Of a DNA stretch of 64,000 nt, positions 9,922 to 34,143 are shown one piece after another. The translations under genes and the position numbers were made by a program. Source of the DNA: an uncultured virus (IMG/VR IMGVR_UViG_3300033153_006255) (taxonomy: Duplodnaviria; Heunggongvirae; Uroviricota; Caudoviricetes); the IMG/VR virus record IMGVR_UViG_3300033153_006255; one strand, given 5' to 3'. The notes beneath the pieces were generated by a model that did not search any database, had not been told where the DNA came from, and was given only the letters and a program-made list of their open reading frames with translations. The stretch's first letter is position 1, and each line of letters begins with the position of its first letter.

Positions 9922-10375
9922 CTTTTTTCTCTGCTTCTTTTAAGGCTTTATCAATTGTAAACTTTTGAAAGAACTTAGCAAGTATTGTACTAGCATCTTC
10001 TCCATTACTACTACCACCCTTAAGTCTCATTAGTTTTTCTATAGCAGATTGCTTTTGTTGGTCAAAGTACTGCCAATCTTTTGGAGTAAGTGATTTATCC
10101 TGCATTGCAATATTACAATACTTGATTGTAGTCCAAAGCTCCTCTGTTAGCTTATTCTTAAACTCTTCTCTGTCTTTATTTTTGGATTCATCAACTTTGG
10201 TGGCCCGTTTATAGTTATTGTAGTGTTTATATAAGGTTGGTCGGGATAGTAGAAACTCATCTCCTCTTTTCTTTAAAAAGTCCTCAACATGATAAGGATT
10301 TTTGCCATCCTCGAACATCTTGAGTATCTCATCTTTTAAGGGATGATTTTGAAAGTTATATTTACCCATTGTCAT
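9845..10375 (-). CDS. Possible terminase small subunit / DNA-binding protein
   Basis: Immediately upstream of terL; helical with an HTH-like LSRPTLYKH segment; assignment mainly by position. Confidence 0.45.
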   Translation of the reverse strand: MTMGKYNFQNHPLKDEILKMFEDGKNPYHVEDFLKKRGDEFLLSRPTLYKHYNNYKRATKVDESKNKDREEFKNKLTEELWTTIKYCNIAMQDKSLTPKDWQYFDQQKQSAIEKLMRLKGGSSNGEDASTILAKFFQKFTIDKALKEAEKKDDAAEKDDNEQGSSGDLLPGESVSV

Positions 10376-15908: not shown

Positions 15909-16106
15909 ATGAAATTTAAAGTAGGCGATAGAGTGGATTTGGATGGCTTTGAAACTGGAACAATTGAAGGCATTGATTATATGACTATGAAGTATCACGT
16001 ATTATGGGGTGGTAGGAGTTATCACTGTATAGATGATATAGAATGGGGAGACAAGAATTATATCCCCACAAGAAGCCCTAATGTATGGAAAGGTGTGCCA
16101 AAATGA
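15909..16106 (+). CDS. WKG-tagged small protein 1 (KOW/SH3-like)
   Basis: MKFKVGDRV start; ends NVWKGVPK. Confidence 0.8.
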   Translation: MKFKVGDRVDLDGFETGTIEGIDYMTMKYHVLWGGRSYHCIDDIEWGDKNYIPTRSPNVWKGVPK

Positions 16107-16327
16107 CGAAGGGATATTGTATAAACTGCAATGAATGGTGTGATGAAGTAACTATGAATTCTTATGGAAGAAGTTCTTATCAATGGAATGGTTCAGATTA
16201 TGAATGGTATGACGCAGGCGATACAGAAGATGATGGACCATATATGTGTGCTGAATGTGGTGAAGAGGTAGAAATGAGAGAGTTTGTAGAAAAACCTAAA
16301 AACGAGTGGAAAGGTAACTCAAGGTGA
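16103..16327 (+). CDS. WKG-tagged small protein 2 (Zn ribbon)
   Basis: Start at ATGA overlap; CINC/CAEC; ends NEWKGNSR. Confidence 0.8.
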   Translation: MTKGYCINCNEWCDEVTMNSYGRSSYQWNGSDYEWYDAGDTEDDGPYMCAECGEEVEMREFVEKPKNEWKGNSR

Positions 16328-16548
16328 TACTTATGGAACAACCGTATTGTTTACAATGTGAGATGTTTGTAGATGAAGCACATACAACTTGTAGAGTAAA
16401 ATACTACTATGTATGGAATGGCACTTCCTTTGAAATTGTGGATAGTGAGACAATAGATGAATCATCGTATTATTGTACAGAATGTGGAGGAGATATAATA
16501 TTTAAAGAGGAAATACCTAAAAATCAATGGAAGGGGAAACCAAAATGA
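16324..16548 (+). CDS. WKG-tagged small protein 3 (Zn ribbon, paralog of 2)
   Basis: CLQC/CTEC; ends NQWKGKPK. Confidence 0.8.
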   Translation: MILMEQPYCLQCEMFVDEAHTTCRVKYYYVWNGTSFEIVDSETIDESSYYCTECGGDIIFKEEIPKNQWKGKPK

Positions 16549-16790
16549 AGTTCCGCCCTGCGCAGAAAGTAACCTGCATTAACGATATTAAGAAAACGAT
16601 GGATGGCGATAGAAAGATTTTAATCACTAAAGGGAAAACTTATAGAGTTACTGGATATGATACAATATGGAACTCTGAAAGCAATTTAATAACAGTTATA
16701 AACGATAATGGAGATAATGTTCCATACTCTGAACACAGATTTATAGCGTTTAATCAGTGGAAGGGGAAAGAAAGATGTCTAAACACATAA
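16545..16790 (+). CDS. WKG-tagged small protein 4 (SH3-like)
   Basis: MKFRPAQKVTC; ends NQWKGKERCLNT. Confidence 0.8.
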   Translation: MKFRPAQKVTCINDIKKTMDGDRKILITKGKTYRVTGYDTIWNSESNLITVINDNGDNVPYSEHRFIAFNQWKGKERCLNT

Positions 16791-16975
16791 AAATTGGAGA
16801 TACAGTAAAACATACTCGTTACGATGGGGTATTAAGAAGTGGAGTTGTCACTAGTGTGGACGGAAATCGAATCTGGGCTACATTTGATGGAATTGGTAGT
16901 TCGGCTACGTTTGTAGAAAGAAACAAGATTCATACAGTAATAAAGAAGAATGAGTGGAAAGGGGGTGAAAGATGA
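16775..16975 (+). CDS. WKG-tagged small protein 5 (KOW/SH3-like)
   Basis: IKIGDTV; ends NEWKGGER. Confidence 0.8.
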   Translation: MSKHIKIGDTVKHTRYDGVLRSGVVTSVDGNRIWATFDGIGSSATFVERNKIHTVIKKNEWKGGER

Positions 16976-17214
16976 AGATTGATGAAATCGAAATACGTGG
17001 CACTATCATTATGAAAGCAGACGACCTTGAAGATGATATCATTATCAAGAAGTTTACTCAGGAATTTGAGGAAACAACTCTCGGTAAGATGTTATTAGAA
17101 AAGGGATATACTTGCTTTGATGATGAAGTGGAGGGTAACAACGACGGCGACAGAATGGTGAGGCTTGTATATGACGACTTAGGTCCGGAAGAGGGGGTAA
17201 GGAATGGGAAATGA
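16972..17214 (+). CDS. Acidic hypothetical protein (no tag)
   Basis: 80 aa, ATGA-coupled to the upstream gene. Confidence 0.65.
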   Translation: MKIDEIEIRGTIIMKADDLEDDIIIKKFTQEFEETTLGKMLLEKGYTCFDDEVEGNNDGDRMVRLVYDDLGPEEGVRNGK

Positions 17215-17647
17215 AGAACTAAAAAAGTATTTGCTTGAAGTATTACAGGAAGTATATGACCATAAACTAAATGCTCAAGAGGGGTATGATAAGATAGAAG
17301 AGAAGTTTATGGAAGAATAGTTGACAGCCAGAGGGTAGCGAGTAAGAAATGGGTTTTGTTACCCCTTTACCAACTCCGAAAGTTACCCTCATTTTATATA
17401 GGGGGTGTATTGTGAATAAAGAAATGAAGGAGGTGTTAAAGAAACAGAAGCCGTGGAATATTAGACCGTTAGCACAAGCACTAAAGAAACGGTATAATAT
17501 GGGATTATTGTATAAAGCGTTAAAAAGAAAGGATGTATTGCTCTCTGATATATAATGGAAACTAAGGCGTGTCGGTAGTCGCAAGTGTCAGGACCGAACA
17601 AATTGGTATACCCAGACAGTCTGAACCTTGTAGTTATCCGTTATATA

Positions 17648-17725
17648 GTCGAAACGTTCCCTGTGTATTTAAACGGGGAACGTCATAGCGAAGTTAACCG
17701 TTCGCTATCTGAAGATGACAGGTAA
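17648..17725 (+). ncRNA. Type II hammerhead ribozyme 3
   Basis: GUC-GAAAC-gttccctg/cggggaac-GUC (17682-84)-atagcgaa/ttcgctat-CUGAAGA-UGAC. Confidence 0.88.
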
Positions 17726-17737
17726 AAGGAGCAAGAT

Positions 17738-17944
17738 ATGTTTAAAAAGGGAGATAAAGTAGAATTTGTATGTGAAGATGGAGAAGGAGATTGTAATACA
17801 AGGAAGGGCGATATAGGATATGTAACAGATGTTATTGGAAGAGATGGAGTGAGCATTAGGACAATAGATGGAAGAGAATACTCTCTTTTAAATAAGAGGT
17901 TTAGAAAGCTTCCAGGAAATATTTGGAAGGGGCACAAAAGATGA
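17738..17944 (+). CDS. WKG-tagged small protein 6
   Basis: MFKKGDKV; ends NIWKGHKR. Confidence 0.8.
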   Translation: MFKKGDKVEFVCEDGEGDCNTRKGDIGYVTDVIGRDGVSIRTIDGREYSLLNKRFRKLPGNIWKGHKR

Positions 17945-18171
17945 AAGCTAAATTTAAATTAGGTGATAACGTTGTTTGTATAGGAAGAAGGAATAGTCGC
18001 CTAGAAAACGGGGCTGGCTGGGAAGCTGGACTCAAGTTTGTCGTAACTGAAATTACTTTTGATGAAGCAAGAAAAGAATACATATATTGGAAGGGATTAG
18101 GACACTGTGGAGTATATGAGAAGTATATAGGTTATGCTATTACCAATGTATGGAAGGGGGCTAAAAGATGA
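17941..18171 (+). CDS. WKG-tagged small protein 7
   Basis: KFKLGDNV; ends NVWKGAKR. Confidence 0.8.
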   Translation: MKAKFKLGDNVVCIGRRNSRLENGAGWEAGLKFVVTEITFDEARKEYIYWKGLGHCGVYEKYIGYAITNVWKGAKR

Positions 18172-18413
18172 GCCTAAAAGTAGGAGATAAGGTAAGGATA
18201 ATTGAGGGTGGGTTAGGTATTAGCCCACAGCAAAAAGGAGAAACAACAGTTATTACTGAAGTAGGTGGAATTTATACTGGTGGTAGTGATACATACGGTC
18301 CTATGCCTGGAGTGAAAGCGAAGAATATTTATAATCCAGCATATAATGATTGGGTAGCAGAAAGAAGTTTTGAGTTGATTAGTAGGAATGTATGGAAAGG
18401 CGGTAAACGATGA
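18168..18413 (+). CDS. WKG-tagged small protein 8
   Basis: LKVGDKV; ends NVWKGGKR. Confidence 0.8.
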   Translation: MSLKVGDKVRIIEGGLGISPQQKGETTVITEVGGIYTGGSDTYGPMPGVKAKNIYNPAYNDWVAERSFELISRNVWKGGKR

Positions 18414-18664
18414 AGTTCAGTGTTGGAAGTAGAGTTAATGTTAAAAGAGGTGTAGGAATAGGTGGAAAATACACCCACCAGAATGGAACTATACTACATA
18501 TTGGTAAAAGTAGTATTTATGACGATACTTTATACTCTATTGAATTTGATAACGACATTGGTGGACATAATTGTAGTGGTCTGGGAAAAGAAAGACATTG
18601 TTGGAGAGTAATGGAAACAGATGTATATAGTCTAAATCAATGGAAAGGTAAACAAAGGGGGTAA
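18410..18664 (+). CDS. WKG-tagged small protein 9
   Basis: MKFSVGSRV; ends NQWKGKQRG. Confidence 0.8.
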   Translation: MKFSVGSRVNVKRGVGIGGKYTHQNGTILHIGKSSIYDDTLYSIEFDNDIGGHNCSGLGKERHCWRVMETDVYSLNQWKGKQRG

Positions 18665-18665
18665 G

Positions 18666-19007
18666 ATGAATAAAGGGGCTGTAATTTTATTATGCCTCGC
18701 CCTTACTGGATGTAGAGAACCTGTGTATACAATAACAGCGTATTGTCCGTGTTCTGCGTGCTGTGGAAAGTGGAGTGACGGATACACAGCGACGGGAAAG
18801 AGGGCTTTGGCAAAGAATAGGATAATAGCAGTAGACCCGAAGGTTATACCATTACATAGTAAGGTGTATATAGAGGGATTAGGATATTATTACGCCGAAG
18901 ATACGGGCTCTGCTATTAAATGGAATAAGATAGACATATTGTTTGATAGTCATAACGAAGCATTAGAATTTGGAGTTCAATACTTGAAAGTTAAGGTAAT
19001 AAAATAA
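18666..19007 (+). CDS. 3D-domain (MltA-like) cell wall protein, possible lipoprotein
   Basis: TITAY...TATG...IIAVDPKVIPL.SKVYIEG.G.Y.AEDTGSAIK.NKIDI; LTGC lipobox-like. Confidence 0.9.
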   Translation: MNKGAVILLCLALTGCREPVYTITAYCPCSACCGKWSDGYTATGKRALAKNRIIAVDPKVIPLHSKVYIEGLGYYYAEDTGSAIKWNKIDILFDSHNEALEFGVQYLKVKVIK

Positions 19008-19018
19008 GGAGAAATAAA

Positions 19019-19324
19019 ATGCCACCTGAAAATAACAGATGGAATGAAAGAAGAGTAACTAATCTACATAGATTTGAAGTAGATTTAGTTATGAATGATA
19101 ATGTATCTATTGTAGTAGTAACATTGACCATTGCTATTACATTTGTAAGCGTAGTATTTGGAATAATGTTTTGGCATTTGGATAGAGATAAAGCCTTATT
19201 AAACAATGGATTTACTAGGACAAGAATTGTTGGACGTGGAATGGAATGGACAAAAAATGACGGTAATGAAAAATATATGTTATTAAGGGGTCAATTAGAA
19301 GAATTGGTGGAGGATGAATCATGA
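19019..19324 (+). CDS. Membrane protein
   Basis: One hydrophobic helix. Confidence 0.55.
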   Translation: MPPENNRWNERRVTNLHRFEVDLVMNDNVSIVVVTLTIAITFVSVVFGIMFWHLDRDKALLNNGFTRTRIVGRGMEWTKNDGNEKYMLLRGQLEELVEDES

Positions 19325-19578
19325 AGCGTATGAAGTATGAAGATTTAAAGAAAGGTATGATTGTAAGAGTTAGGATGTATAGGAGACGTCCTCCACATAT
19401 GCATTGGGGGCAAATGTATTTTTGTGGACAGAATGTTACCATAAGCAAAAAGGACTCTGGTTGTGTATATATAAAAGAGGAAACAAGGAGTTATGGAGAA
19501 AAGAGTTTATGGAATCCGTGTGCATTTGAAAGAGCTAACGTATGGACAGGAGGAGAACGATGCGCTATGAAGACTTAA
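19321..19578 (+). CDS. WTG-variant tagged small protein 10
   Basis: YEDLKKGMIV; ends NVWTGGERCAMKT. Confidence 0.75.
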   Translation: MKRMKYEDLKKGMIVRVRMYRRRPPHMHWGQMYFCGQNVTISKKDSGCVYIKEETRSYGEKSLWNPCAFERANVWTGGERCAMKT

Positions 19579-19835
19579 GAGTTGGTATGGAAGTAGAGTG
19601 TGACAGTTCTAGGTTTAATGATTTTTTTAATGGAAAAGCAACTGTAGTATGTTTAGACCCCATTAGCGTTATAAGGGATGATTGTCTCGCTGGTAGTGGA
19701 ATAATTTATAAGCATAAAGATGGAAGAGCACAAAGCTCTTGGCTATTACACAAATCTGATTTGAAATATATTAAAGTAGTTAGATATAACGAGTGGAAAG
19801 GTAAAGCCCGAAACGTAAGTAGGGTTGTTACGTAA
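19560..19835 (+). CDS. WKG-tagged small protein 11
   Basis: MRYEDLRVGMEV; ends NEWKGKARNVSRVVT. Confidence 0.75.
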   Translation: MRYEDLRVGMEVECDSSRFNDFFNGKATVVCLDPISVIRDDCLAGSGIIYKHKDGRAQSSWLLHKSDLKYIKVVRYNEWKGKARNVSRVVT

Positions 19836-19909
19836 CAGCCATAAGAACTATGGAGGGGTGAATAGTTTAATGTGGCATAATGCCCGAAAGGGCAAGGAAG
19901 GAGCAACAG

Positions 19910-20119
19910 ATGTTAGTAAAAGTAGCAGAAATGGGAGCAGAGGTAAGAGAGTTTTCACTTGGAGCAGGTGCAAGTGTAACCGATGCTTTAGAAGCAGCTG
20001 AAATTGAGTCATCTGGTAGGGATATCAGAGTGAACTCTGAAGCAGCCACAATGACCACAGAATTACAGGATGGCGACATCGTCACTCTTGTCAATAAAGT
20101 GGAAGGTGGAAGTAACTGA
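19910..20119 (+). CDS. Ubiquitin-like (ThiS/MoaD beta-grasp) protein with C-terminal GG-SN
   Basis: AAGGAG SD before ATG 19910; 69 aa; SVTDAL...IRVN...LQDGDIVTLVNKVEGG then SN. Confidence 0.85.
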   Translation: MLVKVAEMGAEVREFSLGAGASVTDALEAAEIESSGRDIRVNSEAATMTTELQDGDIVTLVNKVEGGSN

Positions 20120-20347
20120 AAACAAACGACTTATGACAAATCATAGTTGTTAAAATAAGTTGCTAACGGGGGGAGAGAACAACCCCATTCTCTCCCGCTA
20201 CTTGAAAGGAAAGTAGATGTTCTAAGTGTCACGGTAAGTGGAAATAGAAAACTAAGAGGAAATAACCTCAAGCCGAATGAGAATACGAATCTGAGTATGT
20301 ATGAAGTCGGCAGACGCTCAGAAATACTAATGAAAGGAGATGACTAA

Positions 20348-21505
20348 ATGCGAAAGAAGTTTGCTGTAAGAATGCCATCAGTTGAATGGTATTTAGAAGG
20401 CAATAAACAAACTGACGCGATTGGTGAACCGGTAGTAGATGCTTTGAAAGAGTTATCAAGAAAAACAGAACTTGCTGTCAACTTTGAGATACCACACGGA
20501 GAGATAGTAGATTCGAATCTTGATAGACAGATAAATGTCTATGTATGGTCATCGCCATTTGTGGATACGCCTGTAATGAGAAACGAGTCATTGAAGATTA
20601 AAGGTAAAGTGATTAAATTGAATGAAGGTCAGAGCGACTGCTTTGATTTGAAAACGTGTATAAAAGACCTTGTTCAAACATATCTGAAGCCGATAAACGA
20701 CGATGATGGTAGAGTAATCGGATTGGTAGAGAATAATAACATCTTTATTCCTTTTGACATCTTTCACGAAGTAGAAACAATGAATAATAGTGCAAAGGAA
20801 ATGATAGATGTGTTTATCTATATTATATCCGAAGCAAGAAAGCATATTATCTGCGATAAGAAAATACTAGAACAACGCATAGCAGATATGCCTTTGTTGG
20901 GATATGTAAAAGGCATTATCGAGAACAGTGCGAAGATGGATGAAAAAAGAGTCAATGAGCGTGAATCAATATTGAAAAGCATTGATTCGATACATAAAAA
21001 TCTAGTGGTTGAATATCGTAGATTAGATGAAGTAAATGCTTATCTATCATTGAAATCAATAACCGACAACGAGAAACTTCTGATAGATAGAAACAGAAAT
21101 GCGTTAACTGGTCTATTGAAAAATGGGTATAAGTCCATAAAATGGGCTGGAAACACACTCAAGGCAATGACGGAACCCATTGGAATTGAATTTGAAGATA
21201 AAGAGTTCAAGCTTGGTGGATATGAAATAACAATTGGTATCAACAACTCAATCCGTATTACGAATAAAAAGAATCCGAAAGACGGATTTGACCACCCTCA
21301 CGTTAGAAGTGGTATGCCTTGTTGGGGAAATCTATCAAAAACAGCAACGAAGTTTGTGTCTCAATTTGAATTTGTGCCTTTGTTGGATATGATTTTAAGT
21401 TATTTGAAATCATATAATCCAAAGGACGCATATCATAGATTGGGATATTGGTCGGACAATCAATGTGAAAGGTGTTTAGAAGATGAGGACTGTTGTCAAT
21501 GTTAG
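20348..21505 (+). CDS. Prokaryotic E2-like (ubiquitin-conjugating fold) multidomain protein
   Basis: C-terminal HPHVRSGMPCWGN resembles the E2 HPN...G.xC active-site motif; directly follows the Ubl gene; ends CERC...CCQC. Confidence 0.65.
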   Translation: MRKKFAVRMPSVEWYLEGNKQTDAIGEPVVDALKELSRKTELAVNFEIPHGEIVDSNLDRQINVYVWSSPFVDTPVMRNESLKIKGKVIKLNEGQSDCFDLKTCIKDLVQTYLKPINDDDGRVIGLVENNNIFIPFDIFHEVETMNNSAKEMIDVFIYIISEARKHIICDKKILEQRIADMPLLGYVKGIIENSAKMDEKRVNERESILKSIDSIHKNLVVEYRRLDEVNAYLSLKSITDNEKLLIDRNRNALTGLLKNGYKSIKWAGNTLKAMTEPIGIEFEDKEFKLGGYEITIGINNSIRITNKKNPKDGFDHPHVRSGMPCWGNLSKTATKFVSQFEFVPLLDMILSYLKSYNPKDAYHRLGYWSDNQCERCLEDEDCCQC

Positions 21506-21514
21506 GAGGAATAG

Positions 21515-22854
21515 ATGTCAAAGAAAAAAAGAAGGAAGAAGAAAAAACTCCTACCAAATCTTCTTGATTTTAATGAAGAACCTGCTGATGTAGAGAAAAT
21601 GAGCACGGTAGTATCATCGCCGGGACACGATGTCTCTATAGGAAGCGTATCGATAGTTATGTCGAAAGACATATACCAGAAACTAATGTATTATGTAATG
21701 GCTACAACTGATGAAATTAGTGGTCTTGGTATATGTGCTTGGGATAACGAAAGCATACGCGTTGAAGAGATATTTCTACTAAAACAGGAAAACACTTCAG
21801 CATCAACTGAATTAGATGACGAGGAAGTAAGTAAGTTAATGAATCAACTTATTAGAAACGGTAAGGATGTATCAGGACTTAGGTTCTGGTGGCATAAAGA
21901 AGCCGCGTGAGTCAATTCTGTTTGACATGGAAGATGTATTTGGAACGCAAACATGAAAGGTATGAATTGATGGCGAGTGCCACACACTTGGTAACAGGTG
22001 AAAGAAAAACTCTCTCTAATTGATTAGGAAGCCTTAACGTAAAGCCGAAGGTAACTATGCACAAGGCGAAAGCCAGTGTCAACGACTAAACGAGAGAGCC
22101 CCTGAAAAGGGTGATGCAATAGTCTGAACTCTATGGAAACATAGAGAAGCCCATCCGAAGAGGTGGGCTCGCCTATTTATATAGGTCTTAAAGTAACAGA
22201 ATGTCACACGCTGAAATGGACATATTCTGGTCAGCAACGGATGATAAGTGTTGTGAGAAACTTGGTGGTGGAGACTTCACTATCAGTATAGTAGCCAACA
22301 GGAATAAGAAAATGCTTGGAAGACTTGATATATATAAGCCATTTCCCGTCACAATTAGTGGTATAGACATCAAGATTGAAGATGAAATAGTATTTGATAT
22401 ACCACAAGATATACAAGATGAAGTTGATGAGAAGGTCTCAAGAAGAGTGACGTATTATAATCGAGGAGGATATTATGGCGGACTTTATAGAACCGAGAAA
22501 AAAGCAAATTGTGGTGCTGAATTCTTAGATAGAGACGGTTTGAAAAAGCGTTATAATAGCGACAAATACGCATTTGAGGCTTATGATGAAGAGAAGAAGG
22601 AGTGGGTGTTAGAGAGGGACTTCTATAATTCTGTTGAAGTTCAAGATGGAAAAAAACAGAATGCAATATTCGTTGATGGTATGGTGTATATGGAGGATGG
22701 TAGAACGTTTAATCCTGCTAAGGACAATAGAATATTTGGAGATGTACCACCTCCAGAAATGCTAGATGTTTGCGAGGGTGAACATATCAAACTATGTAAG
22801 GATTGTGCTTATAGGGTTGAATGTTTAGCATACTTCACGAAGGTAGGAGTCTAA
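21515..22854 (+). CDS. JAB/MPN+ metallopeptidase, two exons (21515-21895 and 22204-22854)
   Basis: Joined exons give TDEISGLG...FWWH|SHAEMDIFWSATDD, the E...HxH-x7-S-xx-D JAMM motif; 343 aa in frame. Confidence 0.85.
21896..22203 (+). ncRNA. Group I intron (308 nt, no ORF) in the JAB gene
   Basis: Exon ends in U and intron ends in G; P1 GUGGCAU/GUGCCAC (21977-83); P7 gacta (22084-88)/tagtc (22120-24); P3 ctctct/agagag; GNRA-capped P2 and P9. Confidence 0.88.
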
Positions 22855-22939
22855 AATGGGGGAGAAATCCCCCAAGGCGAATGAAAAGGCGAACTGTGCT
22901 ATGCCTAAGTCGCTTGACGGCACAGAATTAGGAGGAATT

Positions 22940-23203
22940 ATGATTAAAAGAGGAGATAAAGTAAAAATTCTACACGCTGATTTGAATGAACAATTAACTG
23001 ATGAACAATTACTTGATTATGAAAAAACAGTAGGAAAAATAGGAACTATAACAGATGTAATAGATATTGGGGAACTTGGTGGAACTATTACTGTTGATAT
23101 ACCTGGAAGAAGGAATCCAACTCATCATAACGGTGGGTATATTTTTACAAATGGTGAATTTTGTTTAGTCAGTAAGAACGTATGGAAAGGAAAGAAGAGA
23201 TGA
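22940..23203 (+). CDS. WKG-tagged small protein 12
   Basis: AGGAGG SD; MIKRGDKV; ends NVWKGKKR. Confidence 0.8.
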   Translation: MIKRGDKVKILHADLNEQLTDEQLLDYEKTVGKIGTITDVIDIGELGGTITVDIPGRRNPTHHNGGYIFTNGEFCLVSKNVWKGKKR

Positions 23204-23451
23204 AGATTGGAGATAAGGTTATAATAACTGGACCAAAAGATGGAAATTGGGACCAACTTAATGAAGTAGAAACAAAAGAGCATAATAAATTAATAGGAAA
23301 GCGTGGAACAATAGAAAATATAGCCGGAACGACGTTTCCCTACCAATTAAATGTTGATGGGAAAACGCTAACTTTATACTTTGGAGAAAATGAGATAACA
23401 AAGTGTAATAATAACATATGGAAAGGGGATAAAAAGTATGCGCACAGATGA
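23200..23451 (+). CDS. WKG-tagged small protein 13
   Basis: MKIGDKV; ends NIWKGDKKYAHR; overlaps the E1 start. Confidence 0.8.
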   Translation: MKIGDKVIITGPKDGNWDQLNEVETKEHNKLIGKRGTIENIAGTTFPYQLNVDGKTLTLYFGENEITKCNNNIWKGDKKYAHR

Positions 23452-24094
23452 GAGATTTAGCAGGCAATTAGGGATATTGGACCCGGATAAACTGAAGTCT
23501 AGGGTTACTGTGATAGGAGCAGGTGGGATAGGTAGTTGGACAGTAGCAATACTAAGCAGAGTTGGATTTGACGATATAACTGTGTATGATAACGATATTG
23601 TGAGTGAAGTAAATCTCGGTTATCAGTTCTTTAGGGATAAAGATATAGGTCGCCCGAAAGTTGAGGCGTTAAAGGATGTCATAAAAGAGTTTTCGAATAT
23701 GGACTTAAAGATTAAGAACGAGTTGTATAAAGGTGGTGCTTATAAAGAACTTATGATATGTAGTGTAGATAGTATGGACGCTCGTATCAATATATGGGAT
23801 AAGATAAAGATGAAACCTCAAGTCAGATGTTATGTAGACGCCCGAATGGGCGGTGAAGTAATGCGTTTATATACTGTTAATCCTATGGACGTAGATAACA
23901 TTGAGGAATATGAGAAAGAATTGTATCCGTCGGAAGAGGCTGAACAAACAGATTGCTCATTTAAGTCTATTATGTATAATGTTGGAACGATAGCCTCGTT
24001 TATAGTAAACAATGCAAAGAAGTATCTCTTAAATGAAAAGTATGACAAAGAGATATTTTTCGACTTGAAGTCAATGGCTATGGTAAGACGATAA
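23438..24094 (+). CDS. ThiF/MoeB-family E1-like adenylyltransferase
   Basis: RFSRQ, VIGAGGIGS, DNDIVSEVNLGYQ, GRPKV, SVDSMDAR, YVDARMG; candidate catalytic Cys in QTDCSFK. Confidence 0.92.
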   Translation: MRTDERFSRQLGILDPDKLKSRVTVIGAGGIGSWTVAILSRVGFDDITVYDNDIVSEVNLGYQFFRDKDIGRPKVEALKDVIKEFSNMDLKIKNELYKGGAYKELMICSVDSMDARINIWDKIKMKPQVRCYVDARMGGEVMRLYTVNPMDVDNIEEYEKELYPSEEAEQTDCSFKSIMYNVGTIASFIVNNAKKYLLNEKYDKEIFFDLKSMAMVRR

Positions 24095-24239
24095 TGTATA
24101 AAGAAAACACAGATAGCGTACGTAGATACCGTAGAAACTGGTATAGATAGAATAAATAACGAGGGAGATTACGTTTTTGATAACTGTAGATATATAGAGT
24201 TAGATAGTAACAGAAGAAGATGAAGGTAAGGAGATAATT

Positions 24240-24488
24240 ATGGGAAAGATTACAGCAGGACCTTGGAGTATAGGAACTAGGATTGTGTGTGTAGAACGTC
24301 CAGCATGTAATTCGAATATACGAGTTGGCGATACTGGAACTGTAGTAGCAACAATTCGGTCTCATCAAAAAGAATGCGACAAGATGATAAAAATAGATAA
24401 AAAGAAATTAATATACCTATTTATTGAACAACATATGCACTGCTATAAAAAGATTAATGAGAATCTTTGGAAAGGTGGTAAAAGATGA
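24240..24488 (+). CDS. WKG-tagged small protein 14
   Basis: SIGTRIVC, RVGDTGTV; ends NLWKGGKR. Confidence 0.75.
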   Translation: MGKITAGPWSIGTRIVCVERPACNSNIRVGDTGTVVATIRSHQKECDKMIKIDKKKLIYLFIEQHMHCYKKINENLWKGGKR

Positions 24489-24757
24489 GACTATTTAAGG
24501 TGGGAGATACTGTAAAATTAAGTAGTGATGAAAACAAAGAGTATTATGAGGACGAATTTGGAATAAAGCTGGGCGTGCATTTTAAAATAAATAGAATAGA
24601 AAAATGTGAAGACGAAATGGACTCGTGTAGAGAAGTGGGATGTCCTGGATTAATTAATGGAATATGTTTTGCTGAAATGGATTTTGAAGCAGAAGAAATA
24701 CATCAGTTTGAATTAGAACTAGTTTCAAGTAATGTATGGAAAGGTGGAAAGCGATGA
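24485..24757 (+). CDS. WKG-tagged small protein 15 (GCPGxING subfamily)
   Basis: FKVGDTV; ends NVWKGGKR. Confidence 0.8.
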   Translation: MRLFKVGDTVKLSSDENKEYYEDEFGIKLGVHFKINRIEKCEDEMDSCREVGCPGLINGICFAEMDFEAEEIHQFELELVSSNVWKGGKR

Positions 24758-24993
24758 GTATAAATAAGTTTAAGGTTGGTGATGAAGTTATTGTTAATAA
24801 GAATGGATTTATATATAACTGGACTAAACAAGACTCAAAAGGATTTGTAATGGCAGTATATGAAAAAAGTTTAAGGATAAAATTTTATGAAATGACGGGA
24901 CCCATAGAACCTAATACGCCGTATATTTGGAATATAGACTCAAGACATTTAGAACATCTTACTAGGAATGAATGGAAAGGAAAACCAAGATGA
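24754..24993 (+). CDS. WKG-tagged small protein 16
   Basis: KFKVGDEV; ends NEWKGKPR. Confidence 0.8.
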   Translation: MSINKFKVGDEVIVNKNGFIYNWTKQDSKGFVMAVYEKSLRIKFYEMTGPIEPNTPYIWNIDSRHLEHLTRNEWKGKPR

Positions 24994-25009
24994 AAGGGGG
25001 TGAGAATGA

Positions 25010-25333
25010 ATGGTAGCCAGATTAGGGCATAAGCACTACACGGAAGAAGAAAAAGCCTGGATGATTAGGAAGGCAGCATTACCTAAATATAGGCAGAAGG
25101 GAGGACAAAGACTCAAACTAACGAAGTTACATAGAGCATTTAGGAGAAAGTTTGAGTCGGTTCATACACTAGATGGATTTGGTGTATCTATCAAGAAGTA
25201 TTTAGGTGTAAGTAGCAAGAAGCGTCCGTATCATAAGAGAATGCAAAATACACTAACCTTAGATGTTATGGAAGCGAAGTTAAGACCTATAAATGATATG
25301 ATAAACAATATCAAGTCGTTTATGGGAGTATAA
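25010..25333 (+). CDS. Basic hypothetical (possibly DNA-binding) protein
   Basis: YTEEEKAW helix start, K/R-rich. Confidence 0.6.
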   Translation: MVARLGHKHYTEEEKAWMIRKAALPKYRQKGGQRLKLTKLHRAFRRKFESVHTLDGFGVSIKKYLGVSSKKRPYHKRMQNTLTLDVMEAKLRPINDMINNIKSFMGV

Positions 25334-25396
25334 GAATCGATGGAATATGGGGAGAAAAATCTCCCCTTTTCCATACAATCTACAAAAGGAGAATAA

Positions 25397-26260
25397 ATGG
25401 GCATTAAGGGTGGTATTAAAGGATGTGCTTTAAAGGGGTGCTCATTAGAGGTAGGAAAAGAAAAGTTCGAAGCATTAGAAGCCTTTGTAAAAATGATTGC
25501 TAAGGGCGATATGAACTCACTTTTCTTGTTTGGAGAGGGTGGTATCGGGAAAACCGAGACTATACTACGGACTATTGAGAAAGAAGATGTAGAAGCCATA
25601 TACATAAATGGTGTAGTAACGCCGCTAGAATTGTATCACAAGTTATATGAGAACAATGGAAAACTAATTATATTAGATGACATAGAAGGGGTTTTGAGTA
25701 ACGATAGAGCCGTTTCTTTTCTGAAAGCGGCGACTTATGGATATAAAAATAAACGAATTATATGTTATCCAACATCAAGCCCGTTATTGCGTGCACCAGA
25801 AGCGTTTGAATTTACTGGGAAAATTATATTATGTACGAATCACTTTCCAGATAATCCATCATTGGAAGCTCTGTATAGAAGAACTCTATACTATGAGTTG
25901 AACTTATCTTTTACGGAAAAGATTGCGTTATTTAGAGATATAACAGAAAGACCTTATAAGGGAATATCAAAGGGAAAGCGACGAATGATATGTGAGTATT
26001 TAATTGGTATTATATCTGAAGCAACAATAAGATTAAGTATTCGTGAACTATTTAAGGCATTTGAGATATATAAATCTAATCATAGGGATTGGAAAAAACT
26101 CGTGCTTGAATTACTCCATATAGATACAGATATTGAAGCATATATGAAGATAATGAAGGTGGGGAGTAATATTAACGCGCAGATTAGAATGTTTAGAGAA
26201 ATTACTGGTAAATCAAGAAGCACGTTCTTTAGAATTAGGAAGCGTGTAGATAGTATGTAG
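25397..26260 (+). CDS. AAA+ ATPase with C-terminal HTH
   Basis: GEGGIGKT Walker A, LIILDD Walker B, ILCTN sensor, ITGKSRSTFFR. Confidence 0.8.
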   Translation: MGIKGGIKGCALKGCSLEVGKEKFEALEAFVKMIAKGDMNSLFLFGEGGIGKTETILRTIEKEDVEAIYINGVVTPLELYHKLYENNGKLIILDDIEGVLSNDRAVSFLKAATYGYKNKRIICYPTSSPLLRAPEAFEFTGKIILCTNHFPDNPSLEALYRRTLYYELNLSFTEKIALFRDITERPYKGISKGKRRMICEYLIGIISEATIRLSIRELFKAFEIYKSNHRDWKKLVLELLHIDTDIEAYMKIMKVGSNINAQIRMFREITGKSRSTFFRIRKRVDSM

Positions 26261-26533
26261 AATGTAGAATGAATGGATTACCGAAGTCTCATGAAGATGT
26301 GAAACGCCTCGTTTGAGGCACAAGATAAGTGCGAAAAAGGTAGTGATTTAGCGCGAAAACATTAGTGACGGCTGGATTTCAGCGAATACGGGCTTTTTCG
26401 CTCTATTTACGCATATTCGGCGTTCATTTTAGTCTGTCCTGACACTAATTTGTGCTTAAAAATCAGTTTCACGCAAATATACGCAGGTGATATCTCAACG
26501 AACTTATTTTGTAGAATGAAAGGAGCAAGTTAA

Positions 26534-26743
26534 ATGAATGGAGACCTTGAGCATTATATAGAAACAGCAATCAGAAGAAGACAATGTAGTGAATGTGGTA
26601 GGACAATTTATCCCAAGAAACAACACTTTGCTATTCGCACAAGAACACGTTGGGGAACAAGTAGAGTTAATATATGCTTTAGGTGTTTGGGAATATTAGC
26701 AAGAAAGTATTGTAATGTATGGAAAGGAAGGAAAAGCATATGA
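26534..26743 (+). CDS. WKG-tagged small protein 17 (Zn finger)
   Basis: CSECG...ICFRC; ends NVWKGRKSI. Confidence 0.8.
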   Translation: MNGDLEHYIETAIRRRQCSECGRTIYPKKQHFAIRTRTRWGTSRVNICFRCLGILARKYCNVWKGRKSI

Positions 26744-26958
26744 TAAATATAATGCATTGCACATCGTGTCACCACGAATGGGTGTCTATGAAAGAGAAGG
26801 ATACTTGCAACTGGTGTGGATGCGAAGGGTATGTATTGGCTAGTGAGAACGCTATGGCTGATATATGTAATAAAGAGTTCTTTAAGGAATTAGTAAAGAT
26901 TGTAAAATTGAAAGAAAAAATGAGGGAAGTAAAAGATGCGAAAAATAAGAGTCGGTGA
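26740..26958 (+). CDS. Small Zn-finger protein
   Basis: CTSCHHEW...CNWC. Confidence 0.65.
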   Translation: MINIMHCTSCHHEWVSMKEKDTCNWCGCEGYVLASENAMADICNKEFFKELVKIVKLKEKMREVKDAKNKSR

Positions 26959-27193
26959 CCACTTAGAGTGGAATGATGAATCTGTTTTAAATAAATACGA
27001 TATAATGGGTGAACGTAGATATATACTTGTAGAAAAAATAACTGAATGTGACTCTCGGGGTCCAGGTTGTGACGAAATGGGATGTCCCGGAGAGATAAAT
27101 GGCGAATGTTATGGTGCTAGTGGTAAACGGGTTTCAAATCTAATGTGTTTGAAATTAGGTAACTTTAATGTTTGGAAAGGTAAGAAAAGATGA
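26936..27193 (+). CDS. WKG-tagged small protein 18 (GCPGxING subfamily)
   Basis: IRVGDHL; ends NVWKGKKR. Confidence 0.8.
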   Translation: MRKIRVGDHLEWNDESVLNKYDIMGERRYILVEKITECDSRGPGCDEMGCPGEINGECYGASGKRVSNLMCLKLGNFNVWKGKKR

Positions 27194-27468
27194 GACGATT
27201 TAAGAGAAAGCAAATAATAAAGATAGGAGATAAATTAGTTTATAATAAAGGAAGTGTTAGGAATGAAGAAGCCATTATGCAAGGGAGAGCATATATAAGA
27301 GTAGATACTATAGAGAAATGCCATTCAGAAAATCAGAATTGTAGGAAAATTGGATGTCCCGGACATATAAATGGCGAGTGTTATGGATATTCGAGAATCG
27401 GCAGAGGTGGAGACATTTTAGCAGTAAAGGTAGGATATGCAAATGAATGGAAAGGTGAAAAGAGATGA
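27190..27468 (+). CDS. WKG-tagged small protein 19 (GCPGxING subfamily)
   Basis: IKIGDKL; ends NEWKGEKR. Confidence 0.8.
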   Translation: MRRFKRKQIIKIGDKLVYNKGSVRNEEAIMQGRAYIRVDTIEKCHSENQNCRKIGCPGHINGECYGYSRIGRGGDILAVKVGYANEWKGEKR

Positions 27469-27707
27469 TGAGGATTTTTAAGAAAAAACGAAAGAAACAA
27501 GAGCGGTTTATAGAAGGACAAAGAGTAAGGTGTATAAAGGGTGGAAGAGGGGGTTCTGGTTGGAGACTTCATAGAATATTTGTTATAGGGAAAGCGGAGT
27601 ATTGGGAAGACGATATAGTTGGAGTTCTATGGCCGAATGAGGGAGGAAGTGGCATCTTTTCTGACAGCGTTGAAATACATAATCAGTGGAAAGGAGCTCC
27701 AAGATGA
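27465..27707 (+). CDS. WKG-tagged small protein 20
   Basis: FIEGQRVRC; ends NQWKGAPR. Confidence 0.8.
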   Translation: MMRIFKKKRKKQERFIEGQRVRCIKGGRGGSGWRLHRIFVIGKAEYWEDDIVGVLWPNEGGSGIFSDSVEIHNQWKGAPR

Positions 27708-28156
27708 AGACATCTGTAATAGAGAAGTTTATGTTAGAGTCGAATCGCATTGAGGGGGAAGATAGATTGAACCCCGGCGATGTTGAGGCTGTAGAGTATG
27801 CGTTATCAATGAAGATACTTACGATATATGACTTATTTACTATACACTCTTTACTTGGAGAGTATTTGAAGAAGGAATGGGTTGGTAGGTTTAGACAGGT
27901 TACGATACGAGTTGGAGACGATATAAGGTTTCCGAATCCCTATGCAGTGCCTGTGTTGATGGAAAACTATATGAAAGACTTTAAGAAATTGGATTCGTGG
28001 GTAGCACACAACAGATTTGAAAAGATACATCCGTTTAGAGACTTGAATGGTAGAATGGGACGGATTATATGGCTCACGAAAGCATTAAAAGAAGGGTATA
28101 ATTTTGGGATACCTTTTTTACATATGTATTATTACCAGTGTTTAGAAAGGTATTAA
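27704..28156 (+). CDS. Fic/Doc-family protein
   Basis: ESNRIEG and FEKIHPFRDLNGRMGR. Confidence 0.88.
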   Translation: MKTSVIEKFMLESNRIEGEDRLNPGDVEAVEYALSMKILTIYDLFTIHSLLGEYLKKEWVGRFRQVTIRVGDDIRFPNPYAVPVLMENYMKDFKKLDSWVAHNRFEKIHPFRDLNGRMGRIIWLTKALKEGYNFGIPFLHMYYYQCLERY

Positions 28157-28157
28157 A

Positions 28158-28832
28158 ATGCATTACTATGGATATATCTATAAAACTACGAATTTAATAA
28201 ATGGTAAAATATATATTGGTCAAAGGAAGGGAGAATTTTATCCATATTATTATGGTAGCGGAATTCATTTCTTAAGAGCACTTAAATTACATGGACGAAA
28301 CAATTTTAAGGTGAATCTCATTACCTATGCTAAGACAAAAGATATATTAAATAGGCTTGAGAAAAAATATATCGATAACCACAGAAAAAGAATTGGAAAA
28401 AAGCGAATGTACAACATTGCTGATGGTGGAGGTGGGCGTAGTTGTCCCTTTACCGAAGAACACAAATTGAAACTCAGCAAAATACTTTCTGGTAGACCGT
28501 TAACGGAAGAACATAAATTAAAAATAAAGAAGTCACACTCTAATCCTGAAACAAAACGAAAATGTATAGAATCACATAAAGGTAAGTATCCTTCTGAAAT
28601 GACAAGAAGAAAAATGAGTCTATCAAATTCCGGTAAAAAGAGTGTTAATTTTGGCAAAAGATGGATTGTGAATAAGAGATTATGTAGAGAAAAATCAGTA
28701 TCTAAGGAAAATATACTATATTATTTGAACAATGGTTGGGTATATGGACGCAAACCTATGTCAAATAAGCAAAAACAAAAAATTAGTAAATCAAAAATAA
28801 TGTATTATTACCAAACACTTGAAAGACAATAA
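28158..28832 (+). CDS. Free-standing GIY-YIG homing endonuclease with NUMOD3 repeats
   Basis: GYIYKTTNLINGKIYIGQ, YYGSG, repeated TEEHKLK segments. Confidence 0.88.
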   Translation: MHYYGYIYKTTNLINGKIYIGQRKGEFYPYYYGSGIHFLRALKLHGRNNFKVNLITYAKTKDILNRLEKKYIDNHRKRIGKKRMYNIADGGGGRSCPFTEEHKLKLSKILSGRPLTEEHKLKIKKSHSNPETKRKCIESHKGKYPSEMTRRKMSLSNSGKKSVNFGKRWIVNKRLCREKSVSKENILYYLNNGWVYGRKPMSNKQKQKISKSKIMYYYQTLERQ

Positions 28833-33542: not shown

Positions 33543-33962
33543 ATGAAGATGGAAATGTTTGATGGTATCGCTTATGGGATACTAGTAGTTGGTATTTTCG
33601 TTGCGATTTGTATCGCGCTTGGATTGTGGTTAAATTGGACATTAAACCTAAAACGCGAGAATAGGAACCTTCTGTTGTTGCTAAGAGATAGAGATGAAAA
33701 CATCAGAAGATACGCAAATGCTCTAACTGAAGCGAGAAGGCAAGGTGCTGAACAAAGCATCGCTGCTGACAGAGCTACAATACCAGAAGCAGATTCAGTA
33801 ATGAGATTTAGTACTGATGATATGTCTGTTGGTTCAGCAATTTCATTTAGTCAGGAATTTGATACTATGTTACATGAAGTTGCTGGAAGTGACATGACTA
33901 TTCATAGAAGAAATCCAAATGTTTGGACAGGTCAAGAACGTAAACCTAGAACGGAGGATTAA
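33543..33962 (+). CDS. Membrane protein with WTG-variant tag (21)
   Basis: N-terminal TM helix, coiled coil; ends NVWTGQERKPRTED. Confidence 0.7.
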   Translation: MKMEMFDGIAYGILVVGIFVAICIALGLWLNWTLNLKRENRNLLLLLRDRDENIRRYANALTEARRQGAEQSIAADRATIPEADSVMRFSTDDMSVGSAISFSQEFDTMLHEVAGSDMTIHRRNPNVWTGQERKPRTED

Positions 33963-33963
33963 A

Positions 33964-34143
33964 ATGGTAGATAGTGGTTCGATTTTTTACGATAATTCTG
34001 AATGGACAACAACAACTAATGGAGATGTCTATAGATACGTCTCAATGGCACCAAATAGCTATGATTTTACTGTAATAGATGACCCATTTGTATCAAAGAA
34101 TCAATGGAAAGGCAAGAAAAGACCTAAGTATGACAAAGATTAA
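33964..34143 (+). CDS. WKG-tagged small protein 22
   Basis: GGAGG SD; ends NQWKGKKRPKYDKD. Confidence 0.7.
   Translation: MVDSGSIFYDNSEWTTTTNGDVYRYVSMAPNSYDFTVIDDPFVSKNQWKGKKRPKYDKD

Follow-up and report, generated by a model that had tools for sequence, protein, structure and literature searches.

Several known systems attach one constant element to many different proteins. Viral and cellular adaptor libraries carry a constant ligase-docking motif, as in the ankyrin/PRANC F-box-like proteins of poxviruses and in F-box and SOCS-box receptors. Hub-docking terminal peptides include the clamp-binding and PIP-box motifs and the C-terminal tail of SSB. At the level of translation, coupled genes overlap through an ATGA stop/start, with a Shine-Dalgarno (SD) sequence inside the upstream open reading frame (ORF). 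A peptide with likenesses to all three is found in a 64,000-nucleotide (nt) stretch of DNA from an uncultured virus (IMG/VR record IMGVR_UViG_3300033153_006255; Duplodnaviria; Heunggongvirae; Uroviricota; Caudoviricetes), here called the window. In this stretch, 22 plus-strand genes encoding proteins of 59-139 amino acids (aa) end in the common peptide N-x-W-[K/T]-G-x-x-[R/K], the tail or tag, and these tagged genes are interleaved with a cassette encoding a ubiquitin-like protein (Ubl), an E2-like protein, a JAB protein and an E1. The tail is a genuine feature, is under selection as a peptide, and codes for two things at once.

As in the poxvirus PRANC and F-box-like libraries, many paralogs with variable binders and a short constant C-terminal element are encoded in a single viral genome. 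However, the constant element is only 8 residues long, compared with a folded box of about 40 residues, docking to a ligase is putative, and most related cassettes come without such a library. The likeness to hub-docking peptides is that a short terminal peptide sits on unrelated proteins, constant inside one genome but different from lineage to lineage; in contrast to those, the carriers here are tiny early proteins rather than enzymes, and the codons double as the next ribosome-binding site. The junctions resemble those of coupled genes in having an ATGA overlap with a purine-rich SD sequence 9 nt upstream in 15 of 22 cases, but, unlike in ordinary coupling, Asn and Trp are fixed in the upstream protein and the tail is kept where coupling is lost.

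The cassette has its own closest counterpart in the BilABCD-type Ubl operons of bacteria, which are reported to combine the same four parts in one operon (Hör et al., bioRxiv 10.1101/2023.09.04.556158). In the window, these are a ThiS-like Ubl with a C-terminal GG and a short cap behind it, an E1 of ThiF type, a protein with a JAMM motif and an E2-like protein with an HP[HC]...C motif. BilABCD is reported to be a bacterial defense system, whereas the window cassette is phage-encoded and lies among early genes; its E2-like protein has no Pfam, PADLOC or PDB match, its JAB gene is split by an intron, and tagged mini-genes lie between JAB and E1. The surroundings, which include terminase, portal, capsid and tail genes, are those of a phage genome and not of a bacterial anti-phage defense locus. 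Complete phage-encoded cassettes appear to be common in viral contigs (8 of 19 E1-related loci), but neither such a tail nor phage-borne Ubl cassettes, with or without tagged neighbors, are described in the literature searched.

Twenty of the 22 tags lie at 15909-27707, eleven of them inside 17738-24993, and the other two at 33543-34143. A six-frame translation of the window contains 24 W-[K/T]-G triplets, of which 22 are on the plus strand, preceded by N-x and followed by a stop 5-13 codons on; only two occur outside the tags. At the DNA level, the pattern AAYNNNTGGAARGG is found 20 times against 0.16 expected, a number reached in none of 100 shuffles, and a two-tag pattern is found 6 times against 0.00 expected. 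Chance origin of the tail is thus excluded. In 14 of the 22 genes, the stop directly follows N-x-W-K-G-x-x-[R/K]; the rest have 1 to 8 extra residues. Two of the tags, at 19543 and 33924, are WTG variants.

Outside the window, the single-tag DNA pattern matched at least 120 stretches of IMG/VR, one match each; among the matches listed, 119 loci had one tag-like peptide, one had two, and there were no arrays. The two-tag pattern had no matches in IMG/VR and six in GTDB genomes, of which five were isolated chance matches and one was an array with a repeat of about 74 nt. This array (GTDB contig DF820470.1, 1948-18890) has in-frame NPWKGLK and produces 94 false tag matches, but looks like a large CRISPR array unrelated to the tail.

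Some other identities for the motif were considered and dropped. In WXG100 proteins, W-x-G is central, within a helical hairpin, whereas the tail is terminal and its bodies are beta-rich. Repeats of the choline-binding or cell-wall type were set aside, as were signals for sortase or exosortase, since the motifs misfit and a signal peptide is lacking. Fusion of adjacent ORFs by frameshifting was dropped as well, no slippery heptamer being seen in the tag junctions.

Codons were counted over 30 tags, 22 from the window and 8 from its closest relative, a contig called L126 that is described below. In the consensus AAY-NNN-TGG-AAR-GGN, the only variable bases are those of the x codon and three synonymous third positions (AAT 23, AAC 7; AAA 22, AAG 5; GGT 11, GGG 9, GGA 8, GGC 2). 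Asn, Trp and Gly never change: Asn is present in 30 of 30 tags, and so is TGG, though AGG, CGG or GGG would serve an SD sequence equally well. Lys is found in 27 tags, replaced twice by Thr and once by Val, and a basic residue is kept at +3 in 29, with or without a TGA behind it. In eight of the 30 cases, the tag is intact although the next start lies at +25 or beyond, where the next gene has its own SD sequence (e.g. 18641, 33924, and 2814 in L126) or there is no gene nearby (19794). Because variation is synonymous only and the tag is kept where coupling is lost, the tail is evidently maintained by selection as a peptide.

Conservation ends at the invariant Gly, after which 3 to 11 residues follow that vary in length and sequence. 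Such a boundary might mark a processing site, at which a protease, possibly JAB, cuts after the Gly in the manner of Ubl precursor trimming, the trimmed form or the new C-terminal Gly being active. The Ubl of the operon likewise ends in GG plus two extra residues. However, the near-constant basic residue at +3 would be odd in a discarded stub, and the bodies are SH3-like, not beta-grasp. Processing of this kind is highly improbable.

The same codons have a second role. Start positions are given here in nt after the W codon, counting starts that open at least 40 codons. A start lies exactly at +17 in 15 of the 22 window tags (14 ATG, 1 GTG), usually as ATGA, and in 4 of the 8 tags of L126, or 19 of 30 altogether; starts at +19 or +20 account for two more in the window and for three over all 30. 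The K-G codons read GGAAAGG, at SD distance 9 nt ahead of the ATGA stop/start overlap, and the register to the following start is maintained even in T4 and T10, which have lost their own stop. In 15 of the 22 cases, the tag codons thus also act as ribosome-binding site for the gene that follows. As the tag brings both the SD sequence and the start of that gene, a tagged gene is a self-contained, translationally coupled cassette. One 26-nt stretch encodes a peptide and doubles as ribosome-binding site and start for the gene behind it, a compact case of overlapping constraints.

These facts also suit the simpler idea that the peptide itself is functionless, its codons being a ribosome-binding site, spacer and ATGA coupling for the next gene that were inherited by tandem duplication. 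The register set by the next start rather than the gene's own stop fits this idea, as does an enrichment of GGG and AAA in the tag codons. Furthermore, GAAAGG with its GG 8-11 nt before an ATG also serves as the SD sequence at the starts 33543, 38883 and 28158, cited as those of untagged genes (33543 is also the listed start of T21). However, an RNA signal leaves the invariant AAY two codons upstream and the T of TGG (30 of 30) unexplained, as well as the restriction of variation to synonymous sites and the eight intact tags that have a separate SD sequence or no downstream gene nearby. Nor does it explain why the tail is unchanged while the bodies have diverged beyond recognition. A pure RNA function is therefore considered quite unlikely, also in view of the tails of other lineages described below, which are not SD-like.

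Most of the tagged bodies are SH3-like; by our own reading, those of T2, T3 and T17 are rich in Cys and ribbon-like, and the N-terminus of T21 is hydrophobic. None of the 22 proteins belongs to a Pfam family, and PHROG matches are marginal. A profile built from 17 of them gave 721 matches at E ≤ 0.001 among 1.8 billion representatives, the best of which were long proteins that repeat the body up to 15 times and lack the tail; of eight such multi-repeat proteins scanned, three scored above the cutoff for SH3_12. Atlas structure rows for T8 point to SH3-like barrel families, including NHase_beta_C, NifZ and FeThRed_A, with TM scores of 0.52-0.59. Homolog searches with the tagged-protein profile and with T2 returned the window's own proteins only. 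In an all-against-all BLAST, the bodies fall into several groups, and many pairs match in their last 12-21 residues only. The architecture thus appears to be a variable body plus a constant terminal peptide in many paralogs, as the earlier note on this DNA had proposed from the sequence; the several BLAST groups, the pairs matching in the tail only and the selection at the peptide level all bear this out.

The only close relative comes from these searches as well. Among 16 small full-length profile matches that were retrieved, 15 are the window's own, and one, P0061, is foreign and has the tail. Its 6 kb contig, L126, was the only relative among 105 pattern matches in a metagenome scan, and IMG/VR scans with the E2-like protein, the AAA protein and P0061 found no relatives. 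L126 shares 75% identity with the window in E1, 74% in the Fic protein, 63% in the AAA protein and 44% in JAB exon 2. Its eight tags occupy the same slots as in the window. One lies in the JAB-E1 junction and runs over the start of E1, four come behind E1, and three precede Fic, so that the Fic gene keeps a tagged gene ahead of it.

The genes that occupy these slots are not the same. T2, T7 and T4 sit upstream of the window cassette, at a distance of 4-8 kb, and their best matches in L126 (56%, 43% and 34% identity, respectively) are found before Fic and before E1, giving three ortholog pairs in differing slots (T2 with Lg, T7 with Lh and T4 with La). The gene beside E1 is T13 in the window and a T4-like gene in L126. 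Since orthologs occupy different slots, tagged genes evidently move between slots.

The Ubl gene of the cassette (19910..20119, plus strand) matches ThiS (PF02597) at 25.0 bits, above a cutoff of 22.5, and its product has the C-terminus ...VEGG-SN. A good SD sequence precedes the start at 19910; a longer ORF begins at 19880. It is followed by the gene for the E2-like protein (20348..21505, plus strand), which is 385 aa long and has an HP[HC]..G..C motif and a C-terminal Cys cluster. An alignment of 11 homologs shows a beta-rich stretch, then an invariant H-P-[H/C], a Gly and a Cys, and then helices, a layout that we take to be that of E2 enzymes. An Atlas structure row gives a TM score of 0.51 to a cluster partly labeled UQ_con (the AF2 model has a pLDDT of 49), while Pfam, PADLOC and PDB gave no match, and a profile against PDB sequences found nothing below E = 0.4. 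Because the assignment is based on the conserved motif and the partly UQ_con cluster row, the protein is called E2-like, not E2. Further E2-like homologs (P0152-P0155) show 52-57% identity and are encoded on contigs of up to 23 kb.

The JAB gene consists of exon 1 (21515..21895), a group I intron (21896..22203) and exon 2 (22204..22854), all on the plus strand, the intron splitting the metal-binding motif. The intron matches RF00028 at 57.2 bits (core 21903-22146) when the region is searched alone, and was not listed in the gathering scan of the whole window. The splice sites, with exon 1 ending ...TGG TGG CAT and exon 2 starting TCA CAC GCT..., are our own reading. Splicing 21895 to 22204 keeps the frame, and only then is the JAMM/JAB motif E...HxHx7SxxD complete, with H-x-H-x7-S-x2-D restored across the junction. 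Homologs without an intron align contiguously to both exons, for example in L133, at 9481-9765 and then directly 9766-9942. Five of six JAB homologs have sub-threshold Prok-JAB matches, and the window exons alone have no Pfam match; the gene is recognizable only after removal of 21896-22203. L126 has a group I intron at the same position of JAB (60-316, RF00028 92.9 bits). An open frame that enters from the edge of that contig (1-126, ending ...KYNYAKENMLI) lies upstream of the intron match and overlaps its start.

E1 (23438..24094, plus strand) is a ThiF adenylation domain of 218 aa that matches PF00899 at 73.2 bits. The Cap2 "E1-E2" models of PADLOC match only its Rossmann part, and PADLOC has no match for the Ubl, the E2-like protein or JAB. 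Neither the E2-like protein nor JAB exon 2 has a match in GenBank phages.

The tagged genes are arranged around this cassette as the earlier note had described. T10 (19321) and T11 (19560) lie just upstream of the Ubl gene, T12 (22940) and T13 (23200) sit between the end of JAB at 22854 and E1, with T13 running over the E1 start, and T14-T16 (24240-24993) follow E1, beginning 146 nt downstream. In all six other loci for which ORFs are listed, the JAB and E1 genes adjoin or overlap, being no more than 24 nt apart; in the window two tagged genes interrupt this junction, and in L126 a single one does. Nevertheless, about 20 of the 28 non-cassette genes at 15.9-27.7 kb are tagged, so that simple arithmetic gives P of about 0.26 for tagged neighbors on all four open sides of the cassette. 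Because the array is so dense, tagged neighbors are expected by chance, and the interleaving is statistically unremarkable, something that would be seen about one time in four. Shared early expression, which the earlier note had offered as an alternative, accounts for the adjacency at least as well as docking on Ubl enzymes, and the junctions supply it with a concrete mechanism, since every tag comes with the SD sequence and ATGA start of the next gene.

A complete set of Ubl, E2-like, JAB and E1 genes among the tagged genes would also fit the first of two functions suggested in the earlier note, in which the tail Lys is the acceptor of the phage Ubl. The tail would then be a consensus site on the model of SUMO psi-K-x-E, which an E2 reads directly. 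The Lys of the 27 tags that have it adjoins an invariant aromatic residue. However, the acceptor is replaced by Thr in two tags and by Val in one, whereas Asn, Trp and Gly are invariant, and other lysines are abundant in both tails and bodies. The cassette also exists elsewhere without tags. The earlier note had seen that its two WTG variants weakened the suggestion, and with the Lys lost in three of 30 tags it is indeed weak; a role as acceptor is very unlikely.

The relation between tail and cassette can be followed in 19 loci found with an E1 profile search of IMG/VR, in which cassette parts were scored by tblastn. Eight of these E1-related loci have E2-like protein, JAB and E1 (L133-136, 138, 139, 140 and 143), and L142 has JAB and E1. 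Shared tails were sought blindly, by comparing C-terminal 8-mers and counting tail pairs against inner-control pairs. The window gives 196 tail pairs and 5 inner-control pairs, L126 gives 25 and 0, L143 gives 29 and 4, and L138 gives 9 and 4. In the other 17 loci there is no excess of shared C-terminal 8-mers, and ORF tails read directly in L133, L135, L139 and L140 revealed none that are shared. Thus, in six of the eight loci that have E2-like protein, JAB and E1, there is neither a shared tail nor an SH3-like mini-protein within 10 kb, and the cassette therefore does not need the tail array. In these six (L133-L136, L139 and L140, on IMG/VR contigs of 47-183 kb, some of 178-183 kb), the Ubls end in KGG plus one or two residues, with no tail arrays nearby.

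The two remaining loci have arrays of their own. In L143 (3279-12788), eight small ORFs end in [DE]YN[EK].C[HF].[YF]D, four before the Ubl gene and four after E1. In L138 (3828-6945), five ORFs within 3.7 kb after E1 end in D.[FY]N[KR][YFL]. A profile of the bodies only, with the tail removed, matched small ORFs in L126 (4), L143 (2) and L138 (1); the other 18 loci, searched on both strands, gave no match. By these matches, homologous mini-proteins bear different, lineage-specific tails, always near the cassette. As the tails are shared within lineages and different between them, the tail changes in concert within a lineage. Neither of these tails is SD-like, and neither has a fixed Lys at the place equivalent to that of the window tail, which counts against a pure RNA signal and against a Ubl acceptor, respectively. 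Both loci also have an extra gene of 87 aa between the Ubl position and the E2-like gene, and their E2-like proteins begin with an SH3-like stretch.

These arrays bear most directly on the second suggestion of the earlier note, in which the tail docks the mini-proteins onto the phage E2-like protein or onto E1, as a library of E3-like substrate adaptors; we extend it to docking on JAB. The array is centered on the cassette in the window and in L126, and the homologous arrays of L143 and L138 are cassette-centered as well. The best point in its favor is that lineage-specific tails are what would be expected from co-evolution with a phage-encoded receptor. JAB is also longer in the three lineages with tags, at 343, 342 and 371 aa, than in four that lack them, at 167, 207, 277 and 287 aa. 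On the other hand, the length of the E2-like protein is unrelated to tags (385, 370 and 389 aa with, compared to 215, 602, 330 and 373 aa without), the tagged gene next to E1 is non-orthologous between the window and L126, and tagged genes abut the Fic, 3D-domain and other genes too. Moreover, loci ascertained through E1 are biased towards finding tags near the cassette, and the tagged lineages share ancestry and synteny, with a homolog of u14847 lying upstream in L143.

As to whether the tail tracks the Ubl cluster among relatives, both are present in the window, L126, L143 and L138, the cassette lacks the tail in six of eight loci, and no array was seen without a cassette among loci that were themselves found via E1. 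Overall, docking on the phage E2-like protein or its neighbors is doubtful, if still to be taken seriously. In its fullest form, the tail would be a plug that links a diversifying library of SH3-like binders to the phage Ubl machine, allowing E3-less, adaptor-guided tagging of many host or phage proteins. Plug and socket would then co-evolve in each lineage, as N.WKG in the window, YN..C..YD in L143 and D.FNKY in L138. This joint proposal is unlikely.

The explanation that we favor, at about an even chance, is that the tail is a lineage-specific, portable C-terminal docking peptide that also has a role in RNA coupling. It would sit on a rapidly shuffled set of small early proteins of the phage, most of them SH3-like beta-barrels, some Cys-rich and one of membrane type. 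In its RNA role, which can be read from the junctions themselves, each small gene brings a ribosome-binding site and start for whatever comes next. A coupled gene can then enter any gene junction, even that between JAB and E1, without cutting downstream translation or silencing E1. That each tagged gene carries its own coupling signal is the simplest reason for the interleaving with the cassette, and the dual-coded tail offers a plausible route for shuffling small genes into operons without polar effects. In its protein role, the Asn, Trp and Gly that never vary, together with the almost constant Lys and a basic +3 residue, would form a short docking handle, plugging many different binder bodies into one common partner. 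Candidates include the phage E2-like protein, JAB or E1, the neighboring AAA ATPase, or a host hub; that the partner is part of the Ubl machinery is a minority prospect. About 20 mini-proteins with one lineage-specific tail provide an unusually clean entry to the partner of a whole class of early proteins.

Several observations weigh against a docking peptide. GGG (30% compared to 10% genome-wide) and AAA (81% compared to 58%) are enriched in the tag codons, so that pressure at the RNA level shapes part of the motif and could explain more of it than is credited here. The exact tail is present in two genomes only, the window and L126, and the tree behind its measured conservation is thus shallow. 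The codons of the shared Y-N in L143 read TATAAT in seven of eight copies; such tails can hide DNA signals, and one is possible there. Finally, the AF2 model of T8 is of only moderate quality (pLDDT 63), and the tail may be free or packed on the barrel.

The tagged genes, all on the plus strand, begin with T1 (15909..16106), an SH3-like mini-protein with the tail NVWKGVPK (P0034). T2 (16103..16327), with a Cys-rich, ribbon-like body and the tail NEWKGNSR, is the gene whose L126 ortholog is Lg, and its paralog T3 (16324..16548; NQWKGKPK) starts with a GTG at +17 of the T2 tag or with the ATG at 16333. T4 (16545..16790) ends in NQWKGKERCLNT and has lost its own stop, the next gene still starting at +17. 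T5 (16775..16975) has NEWKGGER. Between T5/u16972 and T6, at 17214-17738, there is a gap in the array of about 520 nt with weak short ORFs only and one promoter-like site (10/12) at 17469-17498.

T6 (17738..17944; NIWKGHKR) is followed by T7 (17941..18171; NVWKGAKR), whose ortholog Lh lies directly before the Fic gene in L126. In T8 (18168..18413), the tail NVWKGGKR comes behind the last strand of a beta-rich AF2 model. T9 (18410..18664) has NQWKGKQRG, and the next gene, at +25, has its own SD sequence. A gene at 18666-19007, in the middle of the tagged array, encodes a 3D-domain protein (PF06725, 58.9 bits) with a lipoprotein-like N-terminus (...LALTGC). T10 (19321..19578) is a WTG variant, with Thr in place of Lys in the tail NVWTGGERCAMKT, and T11 (19560..19835; NEWKGKARNVSRVVT) is without a coupled downstream start, the next long ORF lying at +76.

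T12 (22940..23203; NVWKGKKR), between JAB and E1, precedes T13 (23200..23451; NIWKGDKKYAHR), which overlaps the start of E1 by 14 nt (ATG at +19). The three genes after E1 are T14 (24240..24488; NLWKGGKR), T15 (24485..24757; NVWKGGKR) and T16 (24754..24993; NEWKGKPR). T15 belongs to a GCPG.ING.C subfamily together with T18, T19 and Ld of L126; the ATG at +17 of T16 opens 8 codons only, and the real next gene is at +37. Further downstream are T17 (26534..26743; Cys-rich body, NVWKGRKSI), T18 (26936..27193; NVWKGKKR), T19 (27190..27468; NEWKGEKR) and T20 (27465..27707; NQWKGAPR), which is coupled through ATGA to the Fic-domain gene (27704-28156). The last two are T21 (33543..33962), a protein of 139 aa with a hydrophobic N-terminus and the tail NVWTGQERKPRTED, and T22 (33964..34143), with the tail NQWKGKKRPKYDKD.

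The Fic-domain protein coupled to T20 has an HPFRDLNGR motif (PF02661, 43.8 bits), and a NUMOD3 homing endonuclease (phrog_314) follows its gene in the 27704-28832 region. The AAA protein of the window matches only distant proteins of T4-like phages in GenBank phages. According to the GC skew, the plus-strand gene block extends over 31 kb, from about 12 to 43.5 kb, and SD sites are clear ahead of the window genes. The longest contig recorded for proteins of the window measures 76 kb. The window is a portion of a tailed phage, with structural and packaging genes on the minus strand at both ends, including a Mu-type portal, a capsid protein, a T4-type terminase with a LAGLIDADG-bearing insert, tail genes and an NlpC/P60 protein. 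The 3D-domain protein and the tail NlpC/P60 (49257-49661) point to a host with peptidoglycan. The large terminase (7525-9921, minus strand) is 798 aa long and matches Terminase_6N only from residue 449, behind a LAGLIDADG_3 stretch at residues 353-401. By its sequence, the insert looks like an intein with a homing endonuclease, and the front part of the protein has tblastn matches to the ribonucleotide reductase genes of other phages.

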